A model generated the notes under the pieces. It was not told the DNA's origin. It saw only the letters and a list, made by a program, of their open reading frames with translations, and did no database searches. A DNA stretch of 35,587 nucleotides, taken from assembly GCA_034659435.1 (NCBI GenBank), contig JAYEHJ010000091.1:1-35587 (forward strand), read 5' to 3'. Below, piece by piece: positions 3,509 to 30,697 of the stretch. The DNA is from Patescibacteria group bacterium (lineage in GTDB: Bacteria > Patescibacteriota > Patescibacteriia > Patescibacteriales > UBA12075). A program made the position numbers and the translations under genes. Position 1 is the stretch's first letter. The number at the start of each line of letters is the position of its first letter.

Positions 3509-4711
3509 ATGGCAAGAAAAAGCAGATTACCAAAAGGCGGAGAAAATCTTTTTCAAGAGATAAAAAAAGTGTGCACGCGAGCGGAAACGAATGACATAAA
3601 GCTTTATAAACTTTCAATTGGACAGCCGACAGGTCCTGCTTTATTGAGTGCAAGACAAGGAGCGGCAGAAGCGATTATGAGCGACGAGGAATCAATGCAC
3701 GAATATCAGGACAATGGTGAGCCGGGAGTCCCCGGTTTTAGCAAGGCATTTGTTCAAGCGAATGTTGGAAGTTTTGATTTGTCGTATGTTGAAGACATTG
3801 ACTACTTGCCGACTCCGGGAATTAAGCCCATGCTCGGACTTATTCCAATGGCGTGCGGGGAAATAAATAATCAGCATGTTCAAATTATGGTTCAAACGAT
3901 GACTGATCCTGGTTATCCTACTCCGAGTATTTGGTGTAATTATTTTAGTTTACCGAACAAACCAATTTATTTTGCTCCATACAACTATTTTATGTTTGAT
4001 CCCCGTAAGCAAGCTTATGGTAAAAATAGCTTATTTATGCTTAATTTTCCACATAATCCGTCTGGAGAAATTGCGACAAAAGGGTGGTGGAAATATTTGT
4101 GCGCGTTTTGTGAAAAACGTAATATTCGCGTATTTAACGACGCAGCATATGCTATGTTGGCTCATTCATCTATTGCCTGCACGCTAACCGAGGTGGCTGT
4201 TGGATTTCCTAATCTTTCGTGGGCAGAAGCTTTTTCCGCTTCAAAAGTAATTAGCAACGGGACTGGTTGGCGAATTGGAGCAATGGCAGGTTCTCCTGAT
4301 TTTATCGGGGATATTGCGACTATTAAAGGGAATACGGACAGTGGCTTTAATGCGGCGTTGGCATCGGGTGTTCTGCGGGCGATTAAGGATGATATGGAAA
4401 ATATTCAATTTATTAGACAGAGATATGAGATACGGATTCGTGCTCTCATAAATATTTTGACTCAAAGAGGAATGCAATTAGCAGTGGAGCCGAAAGCTGG
4501 ATTTTTTACTCTTTGGAAATGTCCCAAAAAGGCATTTGGAGAAGATGTAAGAGACGCGAAACATTTCAATTTTATGATGATTGAACGAACCGGCGTTGTT
4601 GGCGTACATTTTAATCCATATATTAGGTATGCTGTTGTTGCGCCTATTGAGCAAGTGAAGTTTACCGACGCGATTAAAAAAGCTTTTGATAAAGCAAAGG
4701 CAGAATATTAA
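3509..4711 (+). CDS. PLP-dependent class I/II aminotransferase (AspC/DapL-like)
   Basis: 400 aa. Motifs NFPHNPSGE, FNDAAYA and SASKVISNGTGWRIGAMAG (PLP-lysine context). AGGAGG at 3498-3503 precedes the ATG. The gap to the upstream decarboxylase is 21 nt, so the two are likely co-transcribed. Confidence 0.7.
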   Translation: MARKSRLPKGGENLFQEIKKVCTRAETNDIKLYKLSIGQPTGPALLSARQGAAEAIMSDEESMHEYQDNGEPGVPGFSKAFVQANVGSFDLSYVEDIDYLPTPGIKPMLGLIPMACGEINNQHVQIMVQTMTDPGYPTPSIWCNYFSLPNKPIYFAPYNYFMFDPRKQAYGKNSLFMLNFPHNPSGEIATKGWWKYLCAFCEKRNIRVFNDAAYAMLAHSSIACTLTEVAVGFPNLSWAEAFSASKVISNGTGWRIGAMAGSPDFIGDIATIKGNTDSGFNAALASGVLRAIKDDMENIQFIRQRYEIRIRALINILTQRGMQLAVEPKAGFFTLWKCPKKAFGEDVRDAKHFNFMMIERTGVVGVHFNPYIRYAVVAPIEQVKFTDAIKKAFDKAKAEY

Positions 4712-4834: not shown

Positions 4835-7687
4835 ATGCCCAAAAAACAAAAAAAATTAATGATTATAGATGGGAATGCTTTGATTCATCGGAGTTTTCAT
4901 GCCTTGCCGCCTACTATGACGACAAAAGACGGAACAGTTGTGAATGCTGTTTACGGTTTTATGAGTTTTTTAATTAAAGCCATGCGGGATTTGCGCCCGG
5001 AATACGTGGTTTTAACATTGGATAAAAAAGGGCCGACATTCAGGCATAAAAAGTTTAAAGAATATAAAGCAAAGCGGGTGAAAGCGCCGGATGAACTTTA
5101 CGCGCAAATTCCAATGGTAAAAAAACTGGCTATTGACTTTAATATCCCTGTTTTTGAAAAGGACGGTTTTGAGGCGGATGATTTAATTGGGACGATTTCG
5201 TCAGGAATCAGGAATCAAGAATCAGGAATCAAGGATTTAGAATGTATTATCGTTACTGGCGATAAGGATACTTTACAGCTGGTTAATAAAGAAACAAAGG
5301 TTTATTCTATGAGCCGCGGGTTAAGTGACTCTATATTGTATGATGAGGCGCTTGTGAAAGAAAAAATGGGTGTTAACGTCGGGCAGGTGGTTGATTATAA
5401 AGCGTTGAGCGGAGACGCGAGCGATAATATTCCGGGAGTGCCGGGAATTGGCGCCAAAACAGCGGTTGCGCTGTTAAAAGAGTTTGGTAATTTGGATAAT
5501 TTGTACAAACACGCAACTCACAGCTCACAACTCATAACTAAAAAAATTAAGCCTCGTATTTTGGATTTGCTTGTTGAGCATAAAAAAAGCGCTTATTTGT
5601 CGCGCGAATTGGCAACTATTAAATGTGATGTGAAAATTAAATTTAATTTGGAGGCTATGCGATTTTTTGATTTGGATAAAGATAAAATTGTTAAAGCCTT
5701 AAGCGAGCTTGAATTTAAATCTTTATTGCCACGGGTACAAAGTTTGTTTAACGAAGTCGGGTTGGATACAAAAGAAAAAAAACAGCAAGCAACTGAAGAT
5801 AAATTTAAGCGCAATAAGAATAGTTTTAAATATATTTTTGTTAATAATGAAAATAAGTTTAAAATTTTTTTGGCTGAATTAAAAAAACAAAAATACTTTA
5901 CTTTTGACACGGAAACTTCCAGTTTTGATCCGATTACATGTGATTTGCTGGGGGTTAGTTTTTCCTGGAAGAAAGGAGAAGCGCATTTTGTTCAGTTAAG
6001 AATTAAGAATGAAGAATTAAGAATTAAGGATTGTGGTCAAGGGTCATTGTTTGGAGAAACAAAAAAATTTTGTGATGATGACAAAGGAAAGATTTGGCTG
6101 GAAAAATTAAAGCCGATTTTTGCTGATGAAAAAATTAAAAAAACAGCGCATAATGCCAAGTTTGATGCGCGGGTTTTGAAAAATAAAGGCGTTGTTGTTA
6201 ATGGTTTGGATTTTGATACTATGATTGCTTCTTATCTTTTGAATCCGGGAACGCGCGGGCATGGCTTGGACGCGCTTGCTTTTACCGAGTTGGGGTTTGA
6301 AAAAATATCCAAGAATGATTTATTAGGAACAGGAAAAGACAAAAAAACTTTTAGCGAAGTGGAAATGGAAAAATTAAGCCTTTACTCGTGCGAAGACGCG
6401 GATTTTACCGAACGGCTAAGGCATGCTTTAAAGCCAAAATTAAAAAAAGAAAATCTGGAAGCGCTTTTTAAAACAATAGAGATGCCGTTGATTAGCGCGC
6501 TTTCATGCATGGAAGACACCGGCGTAAAAATTAACTCTGAATTTTTGTCAGAAATGAGCAGGAAAATGGCAAAAAAAATCAAAGCGCTTGAAAAAAAAAT
6601 TCATGATTTGGCAGGAGAAATTTTTAACATAAAATCAACAAAACAATTAAAATATATTTTATTTGAAAAAATGGAATTACCGACAGAAGCGATCAAAAAA
6701 ACCAAAACCGGTTTTTCAACAGGCGCGGATGAATTGGAAAAATTAAAAGAATATAGTCCGATAATTTCCTTAATTCAAGAATACAGAGAATTAAATAAAT
6801 TAGTCAGTACATATATTGACGCTTTACCCGCGCTTGTTAATGAAAAAACCAAACGAGTTCATACAAGCTATAATCAAACAATTACAGCTACCGGCAGATT
6901 GTCCTCCACAAAACCGAATTTACAGAATATTCCGGTTAAAACAGATTTGGGAAATGAAATCAGGAAAGCGTTTATCGCGGACAAGGGCTATAAATTATTG
7001 GCTTTGGACTATTCACAAATTGAATTAAGGCTTGCGGCGCATATGTCCGGCGACAAAAAGATGATTAAAGCGTTTAATAATGGGGCGGATATTCACAGCG
7101 CGACAGCGGCGGAAATAAATAATGTTTCTTTAGATGAAGTTAGCGCGAAGATGCGCCGAGAGGCAAAAGCTATAAATTTTGGCATTCTTTACGGGCAAGG
7201 CCCGCGCGGACTTTCCCGCGGAGTTAATATTCCTTACGCGCGAGCCAAGGATTTTATTGATAATTATTTTAAAGTCTATTCGGGAATAAAAACATATGTG
7301 AATGAAAAAATCGCGTTCGCGCGCGAATATGGCTACGCGGAAACAATGTATAAAAGAAAAAGATATTTGCCTGAAATCAATTCAAGTATTTTACAGGTAA
7401 AAAAAGGCGCCGAGCGCATGGCGATAAATACTCCGATACAAGGAACAGCCGCGGATATAATTAAAATCGCCATGATTGAAGTTATGGATAAAGTTTGCAG
7501 CAGCAAAGCAAAAATGCTTATGCAGGTTCATGATGAGTTGATTTTTGAAGTTAAAGATAGCGAGGTTAAAAAAGAAGCTGAGAAAATTAAAAAAATCATG
7601 GAAAATGTTGTTAAACTAGACGTTCCGATTATTGTTGATGTTAAGGCCGGGGAGAATTGGGGGGAGATGGGGTCAATTCTCAATTAA
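4835..7687 (+). CDS. polA: DNA polymerase I (5' nuclease + 3'-5' exonuclease + polymerase domains)
   Basis: 950 aa. 5' nuclease: EADDLIGT...TGDKD and GVPGIGAKTA. Exo motifs: FDTETSS, NAKFDARVL, YSCEDADFT. Pol motifs: DYSQIELR, RREAKAINFGILYG, QVHDEL. Confidence 0.95.
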   Translation: MPKKQKKLMIIDGNALIHRSFHALPPTMTTKDGTVVNAVYGFMSFLIKAMRDLRPEYVVLTLDKKGPTFRHKKFKEYKAKRVKAPDELYAQIPMVKKLAIDFNIPVFEKDGFEADDLIGTISSGIRNQESGIKDLECIIVTGDKDTLQLVNKETKVYSMSRGLSDSILYDEALVKEKMGVNVGQVVDYKALSGDASDNIPGVPGIGAKTAVALLKEFGNLDNLYKHATHSSQLITKKIKPRILDLLVEHKKSAYLSRELATIKCDVKIKFNLEAMRFFDLDKDKIVKALSELEFKSLLPRVQSLFNEVGLDTKEKKQQATEDKFKRNKNSFKYIFVNNENKFKIFLAELKKQKYFTFDTETSSFDPITCDLLGVSFSWKKGEAHFVQLRIKNEELRIKDCGQGSLFGETKKFCDDDKGKIWLEKLKPIFADEKIKKTAHNAKFDARVLKNKGVVVNGLDFDTMIASYLLNPGTRGHGLDALAFTELGFEKISKNDLLGTGKDKKTFSEVEMEKLSLYSCEDADFTERLRHALKPKLKKENLEALFKTIEMPLISALSCMEDTGVKINSEFLSEMSRKMAKKIKALEKKIHDLAGEIFNIKSTKQLKYILFEKMELPTEAIKKTKTGFSTGADELEKLKEYSPIISLIQEYRELNKLVSTYIDALPALVNEKTKRVHTSYNQTITATGRLSSTKPNLQNIPVKTDLGNEIRKAFIADKGYKLLALDYSQIELRLAAHMSGDKKMIKAFNNGADIHSATAAEINNVSLDEVSAKMRREAKAINFGILYGQGPRGLSRGVNIPYARAKDFIDNYFKVYSGIKTYVNEKIAFAREYGYAETMYKRKRYLPEINSSILQVKKGAERMAINTPIQGTAADIIKIAMIEVMDKVCSSKAKMLMQVHDELIFEVKDSEVKKEAEKIKKIMENVVKLDVPIIVDVKAGENWGEMGSILN
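5201..5242 (+). repeat. 7-nt periodic array, purine-rich flavour, in-frame in the polA 5' nuclease domain
   Basis: TCAGGAA TCAGGAA TCAAGAA TCAGGAA TCAAGGA TTTAGAA, translated SGIRNQESGIKDLE. Confidence 0.85.
5508..5542 (+). repeat. 7-nt periodic array, CA flavour, in-frame in polA
   Basis: AACACGC AACTCAC AGCTCAC AACTCAT AACTAAA, translated HATHSSQLITK. It shares a 15-nt identical core with the reverse complement of 9217-9244. Confidence 0.85.
5996..6037 (+). repeat. 7-nt periodic array, purine-rich flavour, in-frame in the polA 3'-5' exonuclease domain
   Basis: TTAAGAA TTAAGAA TGAAGAA TTAAGAA TTAAGGA TTGTGGT, translated LRIKNEELRIKDCG. Confidence 0.85.
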
Positions 7688-7714
7688 AAATTACGAATTA
7701 CGAATTATTCATTT
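7687..7714 (+). repeat. 7-nt periodic array, AATTACG flavour, starting at the polA stop codon
   Basis: AAAATTA CGAATTA CGAATTA TTCATTT. Confidence 0.75.
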
Positions 7715-7749
7715 AAAATTTTAAAAATAAAAATGGCAGAGCGTTTATT

Positions 7750-9216: not shown

Positions 9217-9244
9217 GTTATAAGTTGTGAGTTGCGTGTTACGA
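9217..9244 (+). repeat. 7-nt periodic array, GU flavour on the sense strand, 5 nt upstream of the murI ATG
   Basis: GTTATAA GTTGTGA GTTGCGT GTTACGA. Confidence 0.85.
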
Positions 9245-11826: not shown

Positions 11827-12396
11827 CTATTTCCTAATATTAATATCATAATTTATCTGCTCAATCTTTCTTAAGTTGCCTTTGGCTTGATCGTATTTGG
11901 TGCGCAAATAGCCTGTCATGTCAAATTCAACCAATTCATGCAGAATATCGCTTATAATATTTTTAATTTTTTTCACCTCCGCGTAATTTCCGGCTGACGC
12001 TTGATTAACCGCCCTTCTCACAAGCTCGCCTGTTAAATCGCAAATTCCGCCTAAATAGCTTTCATAGCTTAATTTAATATTTTTAAATTTATCAATTTTT
12101 TTATTATTCAAAACCATATAAAAAGTTTTTGCTTCAGCGTATTCTTCAACGCCGGCCCTGTATGAACCTTCTTGGTTTAAACGAACATAGCCGAATTTCT
12201 TTTCCAATTTTATTAATATTTTTTCAATTTCATTTAAACTCGCAAGAGCCTTTTCTTTATCAAAACGATGCAAAGCGAAAATCACCCGCTTTGAATCATG
12301 CAAAACAACATTTGCCAAACTGATAATCTGCCTGCGCTCGCTATTATTTTCCAAATAGTCCTTTTTTAATTTTTGGATAAACTTCTTGTTAATCAT
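11827..12396 (-). CDS. translin-family protein
   Basis: All-helical ~190 aa with the translin/TRAX-type signature YLGGICDLTGELVRRA. ATG 12396 is preferred over GTG 12411. Confidence 0.55.
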   Translation of the reverse strand: MINKKFIQKLKKDYLENNSERRQIISLANVVLHDSKRVIFALHRFDKEKALASLNEIEKILIKLEKKFGYVRLNQEGSYRAGVEEYAEAKTFYMVLNNKKIDKFKNIKLSYESYLGGICDLTGELVRRAVNQASAGNYAEVKKIKNIISDILHELVEFDMTGYLRTKYDQAKGNLRKIEQINYDINIRK

Positions 12397-12411
12397 TTTT
12401 TTATATGACAC

Positions 12412-12446
12412 ATATCACGCAACACACATCACACAACACGCATCAA
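12412..12446 (-). repeat. 7-nt periodic array, GU flavour on the sense (-) strand, just upstream of the translin-family start
   Basis: Plus strand: ATATCAC GCAACAC ACATCAC ACAACAC GCATCAA. Confidence 0.85.
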
Positions 12447-12481
12447 ATTAATTTTTAATTCGTAATTTGTAATTGAAAATT
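12447..12481 (-). repeat. 7-nt periodic array, AATTACG flavour, directly after the PilB/GspE stop codon
   Basis: Plus strand: ATTAATT TTTAATT CGTAATT TGTAATT GAAAATT. It is contiguous and in phase with the 12412-12446 array. Confidence 0.8.
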
Positions 12482-12483
12482 GA

Positions 12484-14202
12484 TTACTTTTCTTCAGCAA
12501 CCCTAAACACTTCGTCAACCGAAGTGATGCCGCTAGCCGCTTTTAAAAGGCCGTCTTGCGCCATGGAAATGGTGCCTTTTTCCGCGGCCGCGCCGCGTAT
12601 GTCATATTCGCTGATATTTCCTGATAAAATTAATTTTTCCATTTGCGCGTCAACAATTATTATTTCATATATTCCGATGCGGCCTTTGTAGCCGATCCCC
12701 TGGCAAGCATCACAGCCATCGCCTTGATAAAATTTTAAATTGCTAAAATCTATATTTGCTTGTTCTTCTTTGGGAAGTTTTTTTAATATTTCAAGCGCTT
12801 TTTTTAATTTTTCATCTTCAAGCTTAATTTCTTTTTTGCAATTTTCGCATATTTTTCTAACCAAGCGCTGGCCAATCATCGCGTTTAGAGCCGGGGCGAG
12901 TAGAAAAGGCTTTGTTCCCATTGACAAAAAGCGCGGCACTGTTCCGGCGGCGTCATTGGTATGGATTGTTGACAATACTAAATGGCCGGTTAAGGACGCT
13001 TGAATGGCGATTTCAGCGGTTTCTAAATCACGGATTTCCCCCACCATAATTATATCTGGATCTTGGCGCACTATTGATCTCAGTCCTTGAGCGAAAGTAT
13101 ATTTTTCGCTTATTTGCGATTGATTCACGCCTTCCAGCTGGTATTCAATCGGATCTTCAATGGTAATGATTTTTGTTTCCTGATTATTCAGTTTTTTTAA
13201 AATCGCGTAAAGAGTCGTGGTTTTGCCGCTGCCTGTCGGTCCGGTGGTAATAATCATGCCGTTCGGCCTTCCAACTTCTTTTTTTAATTGCTGAAAAGCG
13301 CGATCCCTAATCCCCAAATCTTCAAAACCCAGTCCGACTGAGCTTGATTTAAGAATACGCATTACCACGCTCTCGCCGAAATTTGTCGGCAAAAACGAAG
13401 CGCGGATATCAATTCTTTCTTTTGAGGTAATTAATGACAATCTCCCGTCCTGCGGCTTGTCGGTAATATTTATTTTTACTTTGGCTAAAACTTTTAAGCG
13501 GGAAATTATTTTTTTCCATAATTCTTTGTCAACCGCGGCAGCGTCATGCAAAACGCCGTCTACGCGAAAACGCACTTTTATTCCTTCTTCTTCTGCTTCA
13601 ATATGAACATCAGATGAATCCAGTTTTATTGAAGCGGACATAATCATAGTAACAATATCGGTAACTTTCGCCTTGTCAATTTCCGATTGCAGATCGCGAA
13701 AGCTTGAAAATTTTTCGCTGAATTTATTAAGATCCGCTTCGGTCAGCTCCACGCCGCGCGATACTTTTCTCACTTTTGGAATAGCCTTATAAAACCCCAA
13801 AGCGTAATCAAGGCTATTTTGCGAAATCAAATAAACCTCGCCATCACAATAAAGTTCCGTACATAGTTTTTGCAATACATCTATTACCTCCTTGTTTTGC
13901 GGAGTAATAGCGCCTAAACGAATTTTTTTGCCGTCATAAACAAAACAAACAGCCTTGATTTTTCCGGCATTTTCTTCTTTGATTAACGATAACGCTTCCG
14001 GACTGATTGGAAAACCAAACAAATTAATGTAAGACACTCCCATGCCGGCGGCTTCCGTCTCGGCTTTTCTTTCCATTTCCTTTATTTTAATTTGCTTTTG
14101 CCTGGATTGAAATTTCGCCTGAGCGCTTTCATCATCAACAACATTATTACTGTTTTTTGAAGCCGCAATCAGATCTTCAATTGATTGAATTTTTTGAGTC
14201 AT
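12484..14202 (-). CDS. type II/IV secretion-family ATPase (PilB/GspE)
   Basis: Walker A GPTGSGKTTT, Walker B IIMVGEIRD, His box STIHTND, and a C-terminal CxxC...CxxC zinc motif. The true start is taken as ATG 14202 (MTQKIQS...). The 62 extra N-terminal codons in the ORF track translate a repeat element. Confidence 0.9.
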   Translation of the reverse strand: MTQKIQSIEDLIAASKNSNNVVDDESAQAKFQSRQKQIKIKEMERKAETEAAGMGVSYINLFGFPISPEALSLIKEENAGKIKAVCFVYDGKKIRLGAITPQNKEVIDVLQKLCTELYCDGEVYLISQNSLDYALGFYKAIPKVRKVSRGVELTEADLNKFSEKFSSFRDLQSEIDKAKVTDIVTMIMSASIKLDSSDVHIEAEEEGIKVRFRVDGVLHDAAAVDKELWKKIISRLKVLAKVKINITDKPQDGRLSLITSKERIDIRASFLPTNFGESVVMRILKSSSVGLGFEDLGIRDRAFQQLKKEVGRPNGMIITTGPTGSGKTTTLYAILKKLNNQETKIITIEDPIEYQLEGVNQSQISEKYTFAQGLRSIVRQDPDIIMVGEIRDLETAEIAIQASLTGHLVLSTIHTNDAAGTVPRFLSMGTKPFLLAPALNAMIGQRLVRKICENCKKEIKLEDEKLKKALEILKKLPKEEQANIDFSNLKFYQGDGCDACQGIGYKGRIGIYEIIIVDAQMEKLILSGNISEYDIRGAAAEKGTISMAQDGLLKAASGITSVDEVFRVAEEK

Positions 14203-14215
14203 ATTTATATTTAAA

Positions 14216-14402
14216 GGGACTGCCGCCGAATGCCAGTTTTGGCATAAATTTTCAAATTTTGAGTAAACTTTTCTTAAAAAAATTTTGCTTATGTGATAAT
14301 ATACGCCCCGTAGGAAGTGCCCTTGGGGTAGGCCAAATTTTTTTAAGATAAATTTGCCAAAATTTGGGAATTTAGGGCAAACTGGCATTCGGCGACAGTC
14401 CC
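14216..14402. mobile_element. 187-bp MITE-like element, family A (terminal inverted repeats GGGACTGCCGCCGAATGCCAGTTTTGGCA / CAAACTGGCATTCGGCGACAGTCCC)
   Basis: The inverted termini were read directly. ATTTAAA lies on both flanks. The interior is non-coding and carries a nested family-C hairpin at 14304-14328. The element lies in the leader of the PilB/GspE gene. Confidence 0.8.
14304..14328. mobile_element. family C 25-nt hairpin micro-element (inverted) flanked by TA/TA, nested in the family A MITE
   Basis: TA[CGCCCCGTAGGAAGTGCCCTTGGGG]TA. Confidence 0.75.
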
Positions 14403-14463
14403 ATTTAAAATAAAGAAGACAAAAAGCCTTCTTTATTTAATATTTATAAATTTAATATTTATT

Positions 14464-17465: not shown

Positions 17466-17506
17466 ATGCCACTAACTATAATTTATTGCTATTCGGCGGC
17501 AGTCCC
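17459..17506. repeat. family A degenerate/solo right end
   Basis: TTGGCAAATGCC...ATTCGGCGGCAGTCCC followed by ATTTAAA, the same flank as the 14402 end. Confidence 0.6.
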
Positions 17507-17510
17507 ATTT

Positions 17511-19876: not shown

Positions 19877-19924
19877 ATGGGACTGTCGCCGAATGCCAAA
19901 ACCGGCATTCGGCGACAGTCCCAT
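19877..19924. repeat. family A short form: perfect 21-bp-stem palindrome
   Basis: ATGGGACTGTCGCCGAATGCC-AAAACC-GGCATTCGGCGACAGTCCCAT. Confidence 0.9.
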
Positions 19925-20151: not shown

Positions 20152-20235
20152 GAATTTATATTTAGGCTAGTTATCTAATTTAAGATACACTAGCTTTTTT
20201 TATACTAATTTTATTTATTAATTTACATATATTAT

Positions 20236-20263
20236 GTGTCGCGTGATATATGTTATGTGAAAT
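20236..20263 (+). repeat. 7-nt periodic array, GU flavour, 3 nt upstream of the nusA ATG
   Basis: GTGTCGC GTGATAT ATGTTAT GTGAAAT. Confidence 0.8.
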
Positions 20264-20266
20264 TAT

Positions 20267-21679
20267 ATGTCAGAATTATCAAGTGCTATCAAACATGTTT
20301 GCGAGGAAAAAGGCTTGGATATGGACGCGGTAATATCTACCATTGAATACGCTTTGGCTGCCGCTTATCGCAAGGATTTTGGGCAAAAAAATCAAAATAT
20401 TATAGTTGAATTTGATACTGAAAAAGGGACTTCAAAAGTTTATGATGTTAAAACCGTGGTTGAGGATATTTTGGAAGAAGATGAACAGGAAAAAGAAAAA
20501 ATAAAGGATGAAAAAGTAAAAAGGGGCAAAGCTCCTGATGTTAAAAAAACGGATGGTAAAAAAGATGAAAAATCGGCTGAAGATAAAAATAAAAAAGAAG
20601 AAGATAAAAAGGACGAATCCGCCACCGCTAAAAAGTCGGCGGACTTGCCCGCCATAGCTTCAGCGGCGGAAGGCGAGGAAAGAAAATTTAATCCTAAAAC
20701 TGAAATTCAGATTAGTGATGCCAAAATGCTTAAAAAAACCGCGAAAATTGATGATGAAATTAAAACCAAGCTTGAAGTGCCGGATGCTTACGGACGCATG
20801 GCAGCGCAAACCGCCAAGCAGGTAATTATTCAAAGATTGCGGGAGGCAGAGCGGGAAATGATTTTTAATGATTTTAAAGACAAAGAACACGAGGTTGTTA
20901 GCGGCGTTATTCAAAGGCGCGAAGGCCGGATTATTTTGGTTGATTTGGGCAAGTCAGTCGGCGTTATTCCGCCGGATGAGCAAATTATCGGCGAGAAATA
21001 TAATACAGGCGACAGGGTTAAAGTTTATGTTAAAGAAGTTACTTTAAAGCCTAGGGGGCCGGAAATTATTCTTTCCCGCACTTCGGAAGAAATTTTGAAA
21101 AAAATATTTTATTTGGAAATTCCTGAAATTTCCAATGGCTTAATTGAGTTCAAAAGCGTGGCGCGCGAGGCAGGGTCGAGATCAAAGGTTGCCGTTTGGA
21201 CTGATTCGGAAAATGTTGATCCAATAGGTTCCTGCGTCGGCCAGCGCGGCTCTCGAATTCAAACTATTATCAATGAGCTTGGCGGGGAAAAAGTTGATAT
21301 CATTGAATATGATGACGATCTTAGCAGATATATTTCCAATGCTTTGTCTCCGGCAAAAATCGGTAAAATTGATATGAATGAAGAGACAAAAAAAGCCACA
21401 GTTACCGTTCCCAATGATCAGCTGTCTTTGGCAATCGGCAAAAGCGGACAAAACGCGCGTCTGGCAGCCAAGCTGACCGGTTGGAAAATTGATATTGTGG
21501 AAGATAAAGAGAATCAGGAATCAGGAATTAAGAATCAAGGAGAAGCTTCGGAAGATACCAAAAATGTTGATGATGTTGAAAATGCCGAAGAGAAAAACGA
21601 TGAACAGAATAAAGAGAAAATATCAAAAGATTCTGAAAATGTTAAAGCAGGCGAAGAAAAAGATGATGAAAAAAAATAA
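20267..21679 (+). CDS. nusA: transcription termination/antitermination factor NusA (with charged insertion and acidic tail)
   Basis: NTD, then RMAAQTAKQVIIQRLREAERE, S1 domain, and KH1/KH2 (GSCVGQRGSRIQ, AIGKSGQNARLAAKLTGWKIDI). Confidence 0.9.
   Translation: MSELSSAIKHVCEEKGLDMDAVISTIEYALAAAYRKDFGQKNQNIIVEFDTEKGTSKVYDVKTVVEDILEEDEQEKEKIKDEKVKRGKAPDVKKTDGKKDEKSAEDKNKKEEDKKDESATAKKSADLPAIASAAEGEERKFNPKTEIQISDAKMLKKTAKIDDEIKTKLEVPDAYGRMAAQTAKQVIIQRLREAEREMIFNDFKDKEHEVVSGVIQRREGRIILVDLGKSVGVIPPDEQIIGEKYNTGDRVKVYVKEVTLKPRGPEIILSRTSEEILKKIFYLEIPEISNGLIEFKSVAREAGSRSKVAVWTDSENVDPIGSCVGQRGSRIQTIINELGGEKVDIIEYDDDLSRYISNALSPAKIGKIDMNEETKKATVTVPNDQLSLAIGKSGQNARLAAKLTGWKIDIVEDKENQESGIKNQGEASEDTKNVDDVENAEEKNDEQNKEKISKDSENVKAGEEKDDEKK
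21514..21541 (+). repeat. 7-nt periodic array, purine-rich flavour, in-frame in the nusA C-terminal tail
   Basis: TCAGGAA TCAGGAA TTAAGAA TCAAGGA, translated QESGIKNQG. Confidence 0.85.
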
Positions 21680-25739: not shown

Positions 25740-25760
25740 GGCATTCGGCGGCAGTCTCAT
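25740..25760. repeat. family A solo right end
   Basis: GGCATTCGGCGGCAGTCTCAT. Confidence 0.6.
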
Positions 25761-29362: not shown

Positions 29363-30697
29363 CTAAAAGGGACTGTCGCCAAATGCCAAAACTGGCATTC
29401 GGCGACAGTCCCTTATTTTTCGCAAATTTTTTAAATCTTCCTCTGATTGCTTGATATATTCTTTGTCCCTTTTCACAATATCGGGGTTGACTTGCAAAGA
29501 CATTTTATTCAGACCTAATAACTCCATTCCGCTAAGCGATCTTACTCTTGACAGGGCGACATAGCCCATACCATAATCAAAAGCGTCCCGCAAATCAACA
29601 ATCATCTCATCAAGGCTCATGCCCTGGCTTTTATGAACCGTAATCGCCCATGCCAGCCGCAAAGGCACTTGGCTTATTTTGGCAACCGTTTCATTGCCCT
29701 CCTCAACCGCCCACTCTCTTGGATAAGCGATAATTTGCCTATCGTCATTAGTTTTAACAATCGGATAATTATCAAATTCGCTAAAGCCGATAATTTTCCC
29801 AAGCGTGCCATTGACATAATGGGCAAAGCCGGATTCGCTGAATTTATTTTTTACAAACATTACTACCGCCCCTTTTTTTAAAACAAGCCTTGACGGCGCC
29901 ATGCAATTTTTTATTAAAAAATCAACCAATTGCTTTCGTCCTTTTTTATAAGATGATTTCATTTGATAGACTGTTTCGCTTTGTTTTATTTTTGCCAATT
30001 CAAAATCGTTTATGGCGTTAACGTCCTTGTTATTGGTGAACAATTTTGTCGGAGTAATATTTCCGCAAACCGGCCGGTTAAGCCTTGATTTTAATGTCAT
30101 CAAAGTATCTTTATCTATCTTGTTATTTCTGATGCTATTTAAAACTTTGATAAATTTTTTATCGCTATGCCTGTGCTGTTCATTTAAATAGCAGACTTTT
30201 AAACAAGATTCATTCCAAACGTTTGCCTTAAAAGCGTATTCATTATTTTCTTCTTTGCCGTTGACCGGCGGTAATTGAAAAAAATCACCGCAAAAAATAA
30301 CCTGAATTCCGCCAAAAGGCGCGATGCTGTTTTTGAAAGACATGCAAATATTGTTAACCAAGTCCAGCCTGTCGGCATCAAGCATTGATATCTCATCAAT
30401 AATCAATACTTTTGTTTTAAGCATCCTGTTCTTTAGATATCTTTTATTTAAAATGGTTTTAAATTCCGCTTTGCTTAATTGCTTGGCGATTCCCATCCCG
30501 CACCAGGAATGAATTGTTATGCCGCCGATATGCGTAGCCGCGATGCCTGTTGAAGCCGTAACTGCCGCGCTAATATGCTTTGACTTTAAATAGCTGATAT
30601 ATTTATTTAAAAGAAAAGTCTTCCCGCTTCCGGCAGGACCTGTCAAAAAAACATTAGCGCCCAGTTTTAATAATTGAAAAGCTTCTTCTTGTTTCAT
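29363..30697 (-). CDS. SF1B Pif1/RecD-like ATP-dependent DNA helicase
   Basis: Walker A GPAGSGKTF, Walker B LIIDEISM, C-terminal ITVHKSQGMSLD and YVALSRV motifs. The last 16 codons and the stop are encoded by a palindromic repeat. Confidence 0.8.
   Translation of the reverse strand: MKQEEAFQLLKLGANVFLTGPAGSGKTFLLNKYISYLKSKHISAAVTASTGIAATHIGGITIHSWCGMGIAKQLSKAEFKTILNKRYLKNRMLKTKVLIIDEISMLDADRLDLVNNICMSFKNSIAPFGGIQVIFCGDFFQLPPVNGKEENNEYAFKANVWNESCLKVCYLNEQHRHSDKKFIKVLNSIRNNKIDKDTLMTLKSRLNRPVCGNITPTKLFTNNKDVNAINDFELAKIKQSETVYQMKSSYKKGRKQLVDFLIKNCMAPSRLVLKKGAVVMFVKNKFSESGFAHYVNGTLGKIIGFSEFDNYPIVKTNDDRQIIAYPREWAVEEGNETVAKISQVPLRLAWAITVHKSQGMSLDEMIVDLRDAFDYGMGYVALSRVRSLSGMELLGLNKMSLQVNPDIVKRDKEYIKQSEEDLKNLRKIRDCRRMPVLAFGDSPF
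29367..29414. repeat. family A short form overlapping the 3' end of the helicase CDS
   Basis: AAGGGACTGTCGCCAAATGCC-AAAACT-GGCATTCGGCGACAGTCCCTT, with one A/C mismatch in the stem. Confidence 0.9.

Follow-up and report, generated by a model that had tools for sequence, protein, structure and literature searches.

The 87-nt gap between a PilB/GspE-type ATPase gene and a translin-family gene of a Patescibacteria group bacterium is built almost entirely of heptanucleotides. In the reading preferred here, which is given a probability of about 0.6 and is drawn from sequence comparison, this spacer consists of two adjoining, partly decayed heptanucleotide SSR arrays that turn over by slippage and lie passively in a probably co-transcribed gap. 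The window is the whole stretch of 35,587 nt that was analysed (contig JAYEHJ010000091.1, assembly GCA_034659435.1). Loci used for comparison are referred to by L numbers.

Flanking genes and extent of the spacer

Both flanking genes are encoded on the minus strand. The gene for the PilB/GspE-type ATPase (T2SSE; Pfam PF00437, E = 6e-121) comprises positions 12484..14202 and ends with the stop codon TAA at 12486-12484. Its likely start is ATG 14202 (MTQKIQ..., with ATGACTCAA at this site) and not the ORF start at 14388, since orthologues are 571 aa long. The 634-aa 'PilB' ORF carries a spurious 62-residue N-terminal extension (14203-14388), which runs across a pair of 21-nt repeats. A 21-nt dispersed repeat, ATGGGACTGTCGCCGAATGCC, is present in 8 copies in the window, where 0 are expected. 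Its sites are 14214-14234, 14384-14404, 17488-17508, 19877-19924, 25740-25760 and 29367-29414, often as inverted pairs that yield perfect hairpins of ~21 bp upstream of genes or at gene ends. This repeat resembles REP or MITE elements and matches no Rfam family.

The translin-family gene (189 aa; Pfam PF01997, E = 2e-23) is located at 11827..12396, and its 3' end overlaps the next gene, which encodes a Trp/Tyr permease, by 23 nt. About 70 orthologues as well as independent gene calls on other contigs let translin begin at ATG 12396 with the residues M-I-N/K. This means that the spacer has a length of 87 nt (12397-12483). The first-pass annotation had ended it at GTG 12411, a codon that lies inside the array. 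Heptamer arrays can mislead ORF callers in this way: here, translin was given a GTG start within the repeat. The orthologues likewise carry an A/T-rich tail before the translin ATG. Translin homologues (1,226, mostly named Patescibacteria) are widespread in that group, and the proteins that cluster with UvrA and translin of the window bear the name Candidatus Parcubacteria bacterium. S1, FtsH, DUF7544, PilB, translin and permease follow each other in a conserved order.

Two heptamer arrays in the spacer

Read on the minus strand, the PilB stop codon is followed by the dinucleotide TC, a stop-proximal array (A half, 12447..12481), a start-proximal array (B half, 12405..12446), the A-rich non-repeat tail ATAAAAAA (8 nt, 12397..12404) and, directly thereafter, the translin ATG. 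Eleven consecutive 7-nt units make up 77 nt of this spacer. The A half begins 2 nt past the PilB stop and reads AATTTTC AATTACA AATTACG AATTAAA AATTAAT, with an invariant AATT core and an A-rich sense strand. The B half reads TTGATGC GTGTTGT GTGATGT GTGTTGC GTGATAT GTGTCAT. Its sense strand is G/T-rich, and it ends 8 nt 5' of the translin ATG, with no Shine-Dalgarno (SD) site. Tandem Repeats Finder (TRF) detects both halves alike and assigns the B half a super-period of 14 nt (87% matches). No non-repeat linker separates the two halves.

The period-7 self-match of the 87-nt spacer amounts to 0.625, whereas all other periods below 14 score 0.20-0.40. In 20,000 shuffles that preserve dinucleotides, the score never exceeded 0.525. 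With the pattern GTGNTNNx3, the B half is the single locus in the window, with 0.02 expected. The same spacer sequence is found in two further assemblies of the same strain. Hence, it is not an assembly artefact, and the three independent assemblies display no variation within the strain.

The first-pass annotation had seen ten heptamers of one phase that fill the spacer, five of an AATTACG and five of a GTGWTRY flavour. The array is real and its period-7 score exceeds that of the shuffles, but there are 11 units, the eleventh being GTGTCAT, and an 8-nt tail follows them. Five units with an AATT core do exist, although only one of the five is an exact AATTACG. Similarly, the G/T array is present, but its first unit is TTGATGC, it follows a 14-nt super-period and a sixth unit has to be added. 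The arrays do abut without a linker. Their single phase, however, is partly a matter of notation, since a differing unit can be assigned any register.

Conventional signals and co-transcription

The earlier statement that the spacer has no room for conventional signals is supported, as simple scans for sigma-70-like promoters, intrinsic terminators and SD sites were all empty. No sigma-70-type promoter (-35/-10, 16-18 nt apart) was detected on the minus strand of the spacer by a scan that misses non-canonical CPR promoters, and a simple scan found no rho-independent terminator (G+C-rich hairpin and U tract) in 12397-12483. Compared with shuffles, the spacer RNA is unstructured (MFE -17.8 kcal/mol, shuffle mean -17.2, z = -0.22). 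A hairpin or terminator between the halves was considered and rejected, since the fold is no better than that of shuffled sequence. No Rfam family matches the spacer: the Rfam matches at gathering score in the window are five tRNAs only, and four related loci yielded no Rfam match. The lack of an SD site in the spacer is uninformative because 23 of the 24 window genes do not have one either. Only the gene with the start at 3509 has a recognisable SD site, and the sequence 5' of the starts is A/T-rich. As neither a promoter nor a terminator nor a structure was found in the spacer, PilB and translin are likely co-transcribed.

The 14-nt period creates three chained mini-ORFs on the minus strand (12393..12443): MRVV* (12443-12429), MCVA* (12429-12415) and MCHIKK* (12413-12393). 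The first two are joined by a UGAUG overlap, and the UGA of the third overlaps the translin AUG (AUGA). This chain is probably incidental, since GTT-type arrays 5' of other genes contain no ATG.

In several orthologues, a AATTTGTAGATT motif recurs 6-14 nt before the translin ATG (L124, 9960-10000; L133, L150, L162). In L124, it is preceded by TTGACA 18 nt upstream. This motif looks like a promoter of translin's own, the leader of which would be very short or missing altogether. The window does not contain the motif.

Separate histories of the two halves

The two flavours had been interpreted as one composite element. Comparison with relatives speaks against this interpretation and reveals separate evolutionary histories for the AATT and the GTG half. 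In L196-L201, whose translin falls into the window's 90% cluster, an insertion of 2.8 kb with four genes separates PilB from translin. There, the PilB 3' flank reads TAA TT AATTTTC AATTATC AATTACG AATTAAA, i.e. the A half has stayed at the stop codon, and the translin 5' flank is devoid of a GTG array. Further loci whose translin is at least 90% identical have no GTG array either: L366/367 contain a 40-nt spacer with a (NNTTAAC)4 remnant, L368-370 a 124-nt spacer with a hairpin, and in L202-205, a different gene is located upstream of translin. Altogether, spacers of 40, 81, 87 and 124 nt are found among relatives at this level of identity.

Among close relatives, only L123 (translin 97% identical) carries both halves. 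Its B half has 5 units compared with 6 in the window and is more uniform, (GTGATGC)n. The A half and the 2-nt linker are identical at 37 of 37 positions between the window and L123, compared with 78% for the third codon positions of PilB (P about 1e-4), which hints at a local constraint on the A half. The same stretch is identical at 31 of 37 positions in L196 and at 16 of 37 in L366, which is as close as L123 but has a replaced flank. Uniform purifying selection on the A half is contradicted by L366. The values of 37/37 and 16/37 at equal distance instead point to turnover by replacement or indel and not by substitution.

Among distant orthologues, the spacer contains AATT arrays only (L124, L131, L146, L170), G/T arrays only (L132, L149) or two different arrays (L156). 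Inverted heptamer arrays that form long hairpins are found in L134 and L138, and some orthologues have a short A/T-rich spacer without any array. In L140, L141, L142, L144, L152, L175, L176, L190, L194 and L195, a conserved 109-111-nt spacer (AACCCCTTTAACAAAGGGGTTGCCCGCAAGGGCGGGGGATTT...) is present instead of heptamers. In this sublineage, the spacer is G+C-rich and highly self-complementary and has no Rfam match.

Other junctions with the same composite, which the first-pass annotation had suggested looking for, were not found: there is no second copy in the 35.6-kb window, where the GTG array is unique, and none in 690 kb of related loci except for the orthologous L123. A dispersed composite repeat of the REP/MITE type was also considered and rejected, as AATT arrays occur without a GTG array and the composite does not recur. 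One such lone array, in L196, precedes a convergent gene; another is found at the polA stop codon of the window (see below).

Array position and strand composition

Among the matches listed from a cross-phylum scan (see below), about 39% of the (AATTACG)n arrays begin or end no more than 6 nt from an ORF stop, compared with about 5% of random intergenic points (ORFs of at least 80 codons, either orientation). These stop-near arrays, again among the matches listed, comprise 34 in sense and 32 in antisense orientation. The absence of a strand bias suggests a DNA-level cause and speaks against a function that depends on the RNA sequence. Of about 15 AATTNNN arrays with at least 4 units in the Parcubacteria loci, 12 start -12 to +10 nt from a stop codon. 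Half of the (GTKNNNN)x4 arrays with at least 4 units (7/14) precede a start codon by 2-8 nt in sense orientation, and none does so in antisense. The genes preceded by them encode translin, a glutamate racemase and an RNase H-like protein; the array at 9217-9244 in the window is one of the seven.

In same-strand spacers, stop-abutting arrays have a mean AT skew of +0.20 (A-rich) and start-abutting arrays one of -0.25 (T-rich), with p = 0.0013 in a Mann-Whitney test on samples that are small and partly non-independent. When all heptamer arrays in same-strand spacers are pooled, no significant stop bias is seen (25 vs 18, p = 0.36); only the position bias split by composition is significant. The L124 spacer illustrates the arrangement: it consists of stop codon, (AACGCAT)3, intrinsic terminator, intervening sequence, (GTTACGA)4, GAAT and ATG. 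The terminator between the arrays places the two array positions in different transcripts. The labels stop-proximal and start-proximal, which had been applied to two halves of one element, are therefore retained in part. They denote real tendencies of two independent modules that happen to touch in the window: arrays near stops tend to be A-rich, those near starts T/G-rich.

Other heptamer arrays in the window

Period 7 is the top repeat class of the window, with 10 segments compared with 0.3 in shuffles. A second array of the AATTACG family, TCAATTC TCAATTA AAAATTA CGAATTA CGAATTA TTCATTT (7675..7720, plus strand), overlaps the polA stop codon and is not followed by a GTG array. Its orthologue in L363 is split by a 22-nt insert, and L364 has no such array. 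In L363, where the array is located at 5333-5396, the insert is ACCCGTCAAGCGAGTACAAGCG, and short inserts likewise interrupt (AATTACG)n in the Nostoc loci L011 and L084. These three cases suggest that small mobile elements may target AATTACG arrays. A third stop-abutting array (14434..14461, minus strand, TRF), which reads (TATTTAA)n on the plus strand, begins 2 nt past the stop of the DUF7544 gene. A second start-abutting G/T array, GTTATAA GTTGTGA GTTGCGT GTTACGA (9217..9244, plus strand), is followed by GAAAC and then by ATG 9250, where the glutamate racemase gene begins. At this junction, the gene pair of L364 overlaps and has no spacer. The 5' flank of nusA (20235-20266) reads ATGTGTC GCGTGAT ATATGTT ATGTGAA and has GCGTGATAT in common with the B half. 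This flank resembles a start-proximal G/T heptamer array in a state of decay.

Arrays are also found in frame inside genes. A (TCAGGAA)n array within polA (5201..5231, plus strand, TRF) is read SGIRNQESGIKD. Sister arrays in variable linkers are located at 5505-5547 and 5996-6032 in polA and at 21511-21537 in nusA; the readings in both genes are SGIRNQESGIKD, LRIKNEELRIKD and NQESGIKNQ. One linker site of polA is occupied by (AATTAAG)5 in the window and by a perfect (AAATTAC)4 in L363, which is 84% identical. In the former, the in-frame TAA has become GAA, so that the frame stays open. At another polA site, a GGAATCA array is degenerate in the window and perfect in L363. Other PolI orthologues display TNYELRITN at the array sites, which corresponds to AATTACG read in frame. 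In this way, heptamer arrays introduce 7-residue repeats into essential proteins (PolI, NusA).

Occurrence in the lineage and in other phyla

Among the TRF arrays in 733 kb of related loci, period 7 ranks first, together with 14 and 21, and these arrays are mostly intergenic despite 87% coding sequence. Heptamer arrays thus predominate among the tandem repeats of this Parcubacteria lineage, and they come in many flavours. Near-identical loci carry 9.9 (L158), 10.9 (L159) and 8.9 (L161) copies of (TATGCGA)n, which indicates length change in steps of one unit. Such arrays could serve as strain markers.

A cross-phylum scan for exact matches to AATTACRAATTACGAATTA, with one genome per GTDB species, yielded at least 120 stretches. 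Among the matches listed, (AATTACG)n is found in Nostocales, Planktothrix, Bacteroidota, Ignavibacteria, Chloroflexia, Acidobacteriota, Planctomycetota, Calditrichota, Microgenomates and Paceibacterota, including many Nostoc, Anabaena and Calothrix genomes. In these loci, again among the matches listed, period 7 dominates with 217 arrays, whereas no period outside the multiples of 7 exceeds 28. A further 63 unit classes occur there, often directly abutting the AATTACG array, which makes flavour switches without a linker a generic feature. On viral contigs, (AATTACG)n occurs in 91 stretches and three composition-matched heptamers in 28, 32 and 6 (a 3-15x excess). AATTACG is favoured, though not unique, so that some unit preference exists. 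In several cross-phylum loci (L015, L016, L023, L024, L039, L081, L111, L118 and others), inverted (AATTACG)n pairs flank a G+C-rich hairpin and lengthen terminator-like stems by 20-30 A/T-rich bp. In the literature searched, neither an (AATTACG)n array nor an NYELRIT peptide was in print, and nothing linked heptamers to Patescibacteria.

Origin of the arrays and alternative explanations

Slipped-strand mispairing in 7-nt or 14-nt steps would generate arrays of this kind and drive their turnover, and point mutations would then let them decay towards A/T. While expanding into DNA, they would be halted at the coding boundary. They may pile up against the stop codon because this is the least constrained DNA of a compact genome. 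The variable positions of the A half fall mostly where AATTACG has C or G, which suggests that the A half is an older (AATTACG)n array that decayed under A/T pressure. The arrays may be tolerated since initiation here is SD-independent and the RNA unstructured. At most, they would be passive, unstructured filler that keeps the PilB stop at a given distance from the A-rich, SD-less start of translin, and not a sequence-specific device. The variants of the in-frame arrays in polA and nusA fit mutation combined with expansion and contraction, filtered by selection for open frames. Against such a passive role count the positional and compositional split of the arrays, which pure neutrality does not predict, the complete identity of the A half with L123 and the preference for the AATTACG unit.

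Alternatively, the arrays might be independent functional UTR modules, an A-rich 3'-UTR element and a T/G-rich 5'-UTR aid to initiation. The latter might, by analogy with the TAACTGA repeats, be a standby site or bind S1 or a cold-shock protein. This is rather unlikely, although bimodal placement with opposite sense-strand skew, the sense-only start-proximal GTKNNNN arrays, the L124 layout with an array on either side of the terminator and its intervening sequence, and the conservation of the A half above the synonymous rate in L123 all speak for it. Furthermore, the genome is almost SD-free, and a role of this kind has been proposed for TAACTGA repeats (MacGregor, 2015, PMC4679880). On the other hand, the arrays are dispensable in equally close relatives, their unit sequences are highly diverse, and the cross-phylum AATTACG arrays among the matches listed are divided almost evenly between sense and antisense. 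The G/T richness of the sense strand may be no more than a consequence of the strong GC skew of coding strands in this genome, and the position and composition samples are small and partly non-independent. The wider proposal that the arrays are selected UTR modules of SD-less genomes, with the AATT core marking 3' ends and T/G-rich units promoting (re)initiation, is quite unlikely. If it were true, AATTACG would be common to at least 7 phyla via a conserved factor or a mobile process, and the PilB-translin spacer would be a minimal case, in which two modules touch with nothing else between them. GUUACGA is complementary to the conserved 16S segment UCGUAAC. This match is weak evidence, because the segment is base-paired in the ribosome and only a 7-mer is involved. 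Should the positional split be functional, it would, together with the reuse of AATTACG across phyla, bear on UTR organisation in genomes without SD sites.

A composite element that hands ribosomes on from the end of PilB to the beginning of translin, by coupling or 70S scanning and perhaps via a mini-ORF relay, would explain why terminator, promoter and SD site are missing and why the B half encodes chained mini-ORFs, the last with an AUGA overlap at translin. In addition, stop- and start-abutting array classes recur in related loci, and the L156 spacer holds two arrays. Nevertheless, it is very unlikely: L196-L201 carry the halves cleanly apart, and four groups of relatives whose translin is at least 90% identical have no B half. 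A-type arrays stand alone after polA and before the convergent gene in L196, and the 35.6 kb contain no second composite. A mini-ORF relay is not general, as the GTT-type start-proximal arrays of other genes are without ATG, and in L124 the array types flank a canonical terminator and belong to different transcripts. Autoregulation was considered, too. Translin binds GT-rich single-stranded nucleic acid, and its gene is closely preceded by GT-rich arrays in the window, L123, L132, L149, L156 and, partly, L131, so that the B half might be a binding site for the translin protein. Such a site is hardly credible, since L196-L205 and L366-L370, with translin at least 90% identical, have no such array, the same array type precedes the glutamate racemase and RNase H-like genes, and other orthologues carry the promoter-like AATTTGTAGATT motif instead. 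For the first two of these reasons, autoregulation through a GT-rich array was rejected. Finally, the spacer might be a contingency (phase-variable) locus, in which gain or loss of 7-nt units tunes translin through spacing or mini-ORF frames. The unit-step difference between the window and L123, the copy-number polymorphism of (TATGCGA)n in near-identical strains and the 7-nt indels reported for Cyanothece strains (PMC4679880) are compatible with this idea. It is highly improbable, however: both arrays are interrupted and degenerate, which suppresses slippage, three independent assemblies agree on one and the same spacer, and no surface or virulence gene is involved.

Comparison with known systems

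The spacer shares several properties with translational coupling: a same-strand gene pair, the absence of terminator and promoter consensus and the final AUGA overlap between mini-ORF and translin. Unlike in termination-reinitiation coupling, PilB stop and translin start are 87 nt apart, and the arrangement is not conserved in close relatives. Mazel et al. are said to have described, in 1990, the cyanobacterial STRR heptamers CCCCAGT, TTGGTCA and CAACAGT. STRR heptamers are dispersed tandem intergenic copies that are occasionally translated as 7-residue peptide repeats. The spacer does not belong to them: its units differ from these three, and its host is a CPR bacterium and not a heterocystous cyanobacterium.

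More is shared with the TAACTGA repeats (MacGregor, 2015, PMC4679880). In both cases, one heptamer is found across distant phyla and mixed with other heptamers, many arrays lie just upstream of starts without a canonical ribosome-binding site, and relatives have shorter, repeat-free spacers and indels in 7-nt steps. The start-proximal placement without a ribosome-binding site and the relatives lacking repeats were reported in that work, and mixed heptamer arrays with 7-nt-step indels are described for cyanobacteria, Bacteroidetes and Beggiatoaceae (PMC4679880). However, the units are AATTNNN and GTGWTRY here and not TAACTGA. AATT arrays abut stop codons, whereas TAACTGA repeats abut starts. 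A forward orientation near a start without ribosome-binding site, as is typical of the TAACTGA family, is found for the B half only and, elsewhere, for 7 of 14 GTKNNNN arrays.

The best match are the long heptanucleotide SSRs. According to Mrazek et al. (2007), as related in PMC4679880, heptanucleotide units are the most abundant long-SSR class in many prokaryotes. In the same account, these SSRs are, like the spacer, longer than chance, mostly intergenic, sporadic across phyla and subject to unit-step change, with polymerase slippage as the proposed origin. The head-to-tail units of the spacer fall within the 5-11 nt of this class and extend further than composition predicts. Whole-unit length steps between related strains are seen in the B half compared with L123 and in (TATGCGA)n, and the window, the related loci and the cross-phylum loci all display an excess of the same period. 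Unlike the SSRs described there, the spacer is degenerate, two flavours abut in it, and its arrays are split into stop-abutting and start-abutting ones. Taken together, it appears to be an ordinary, if striking, case of a heptanucleotide SSR that extends the phenomenon to Parcubacteria.
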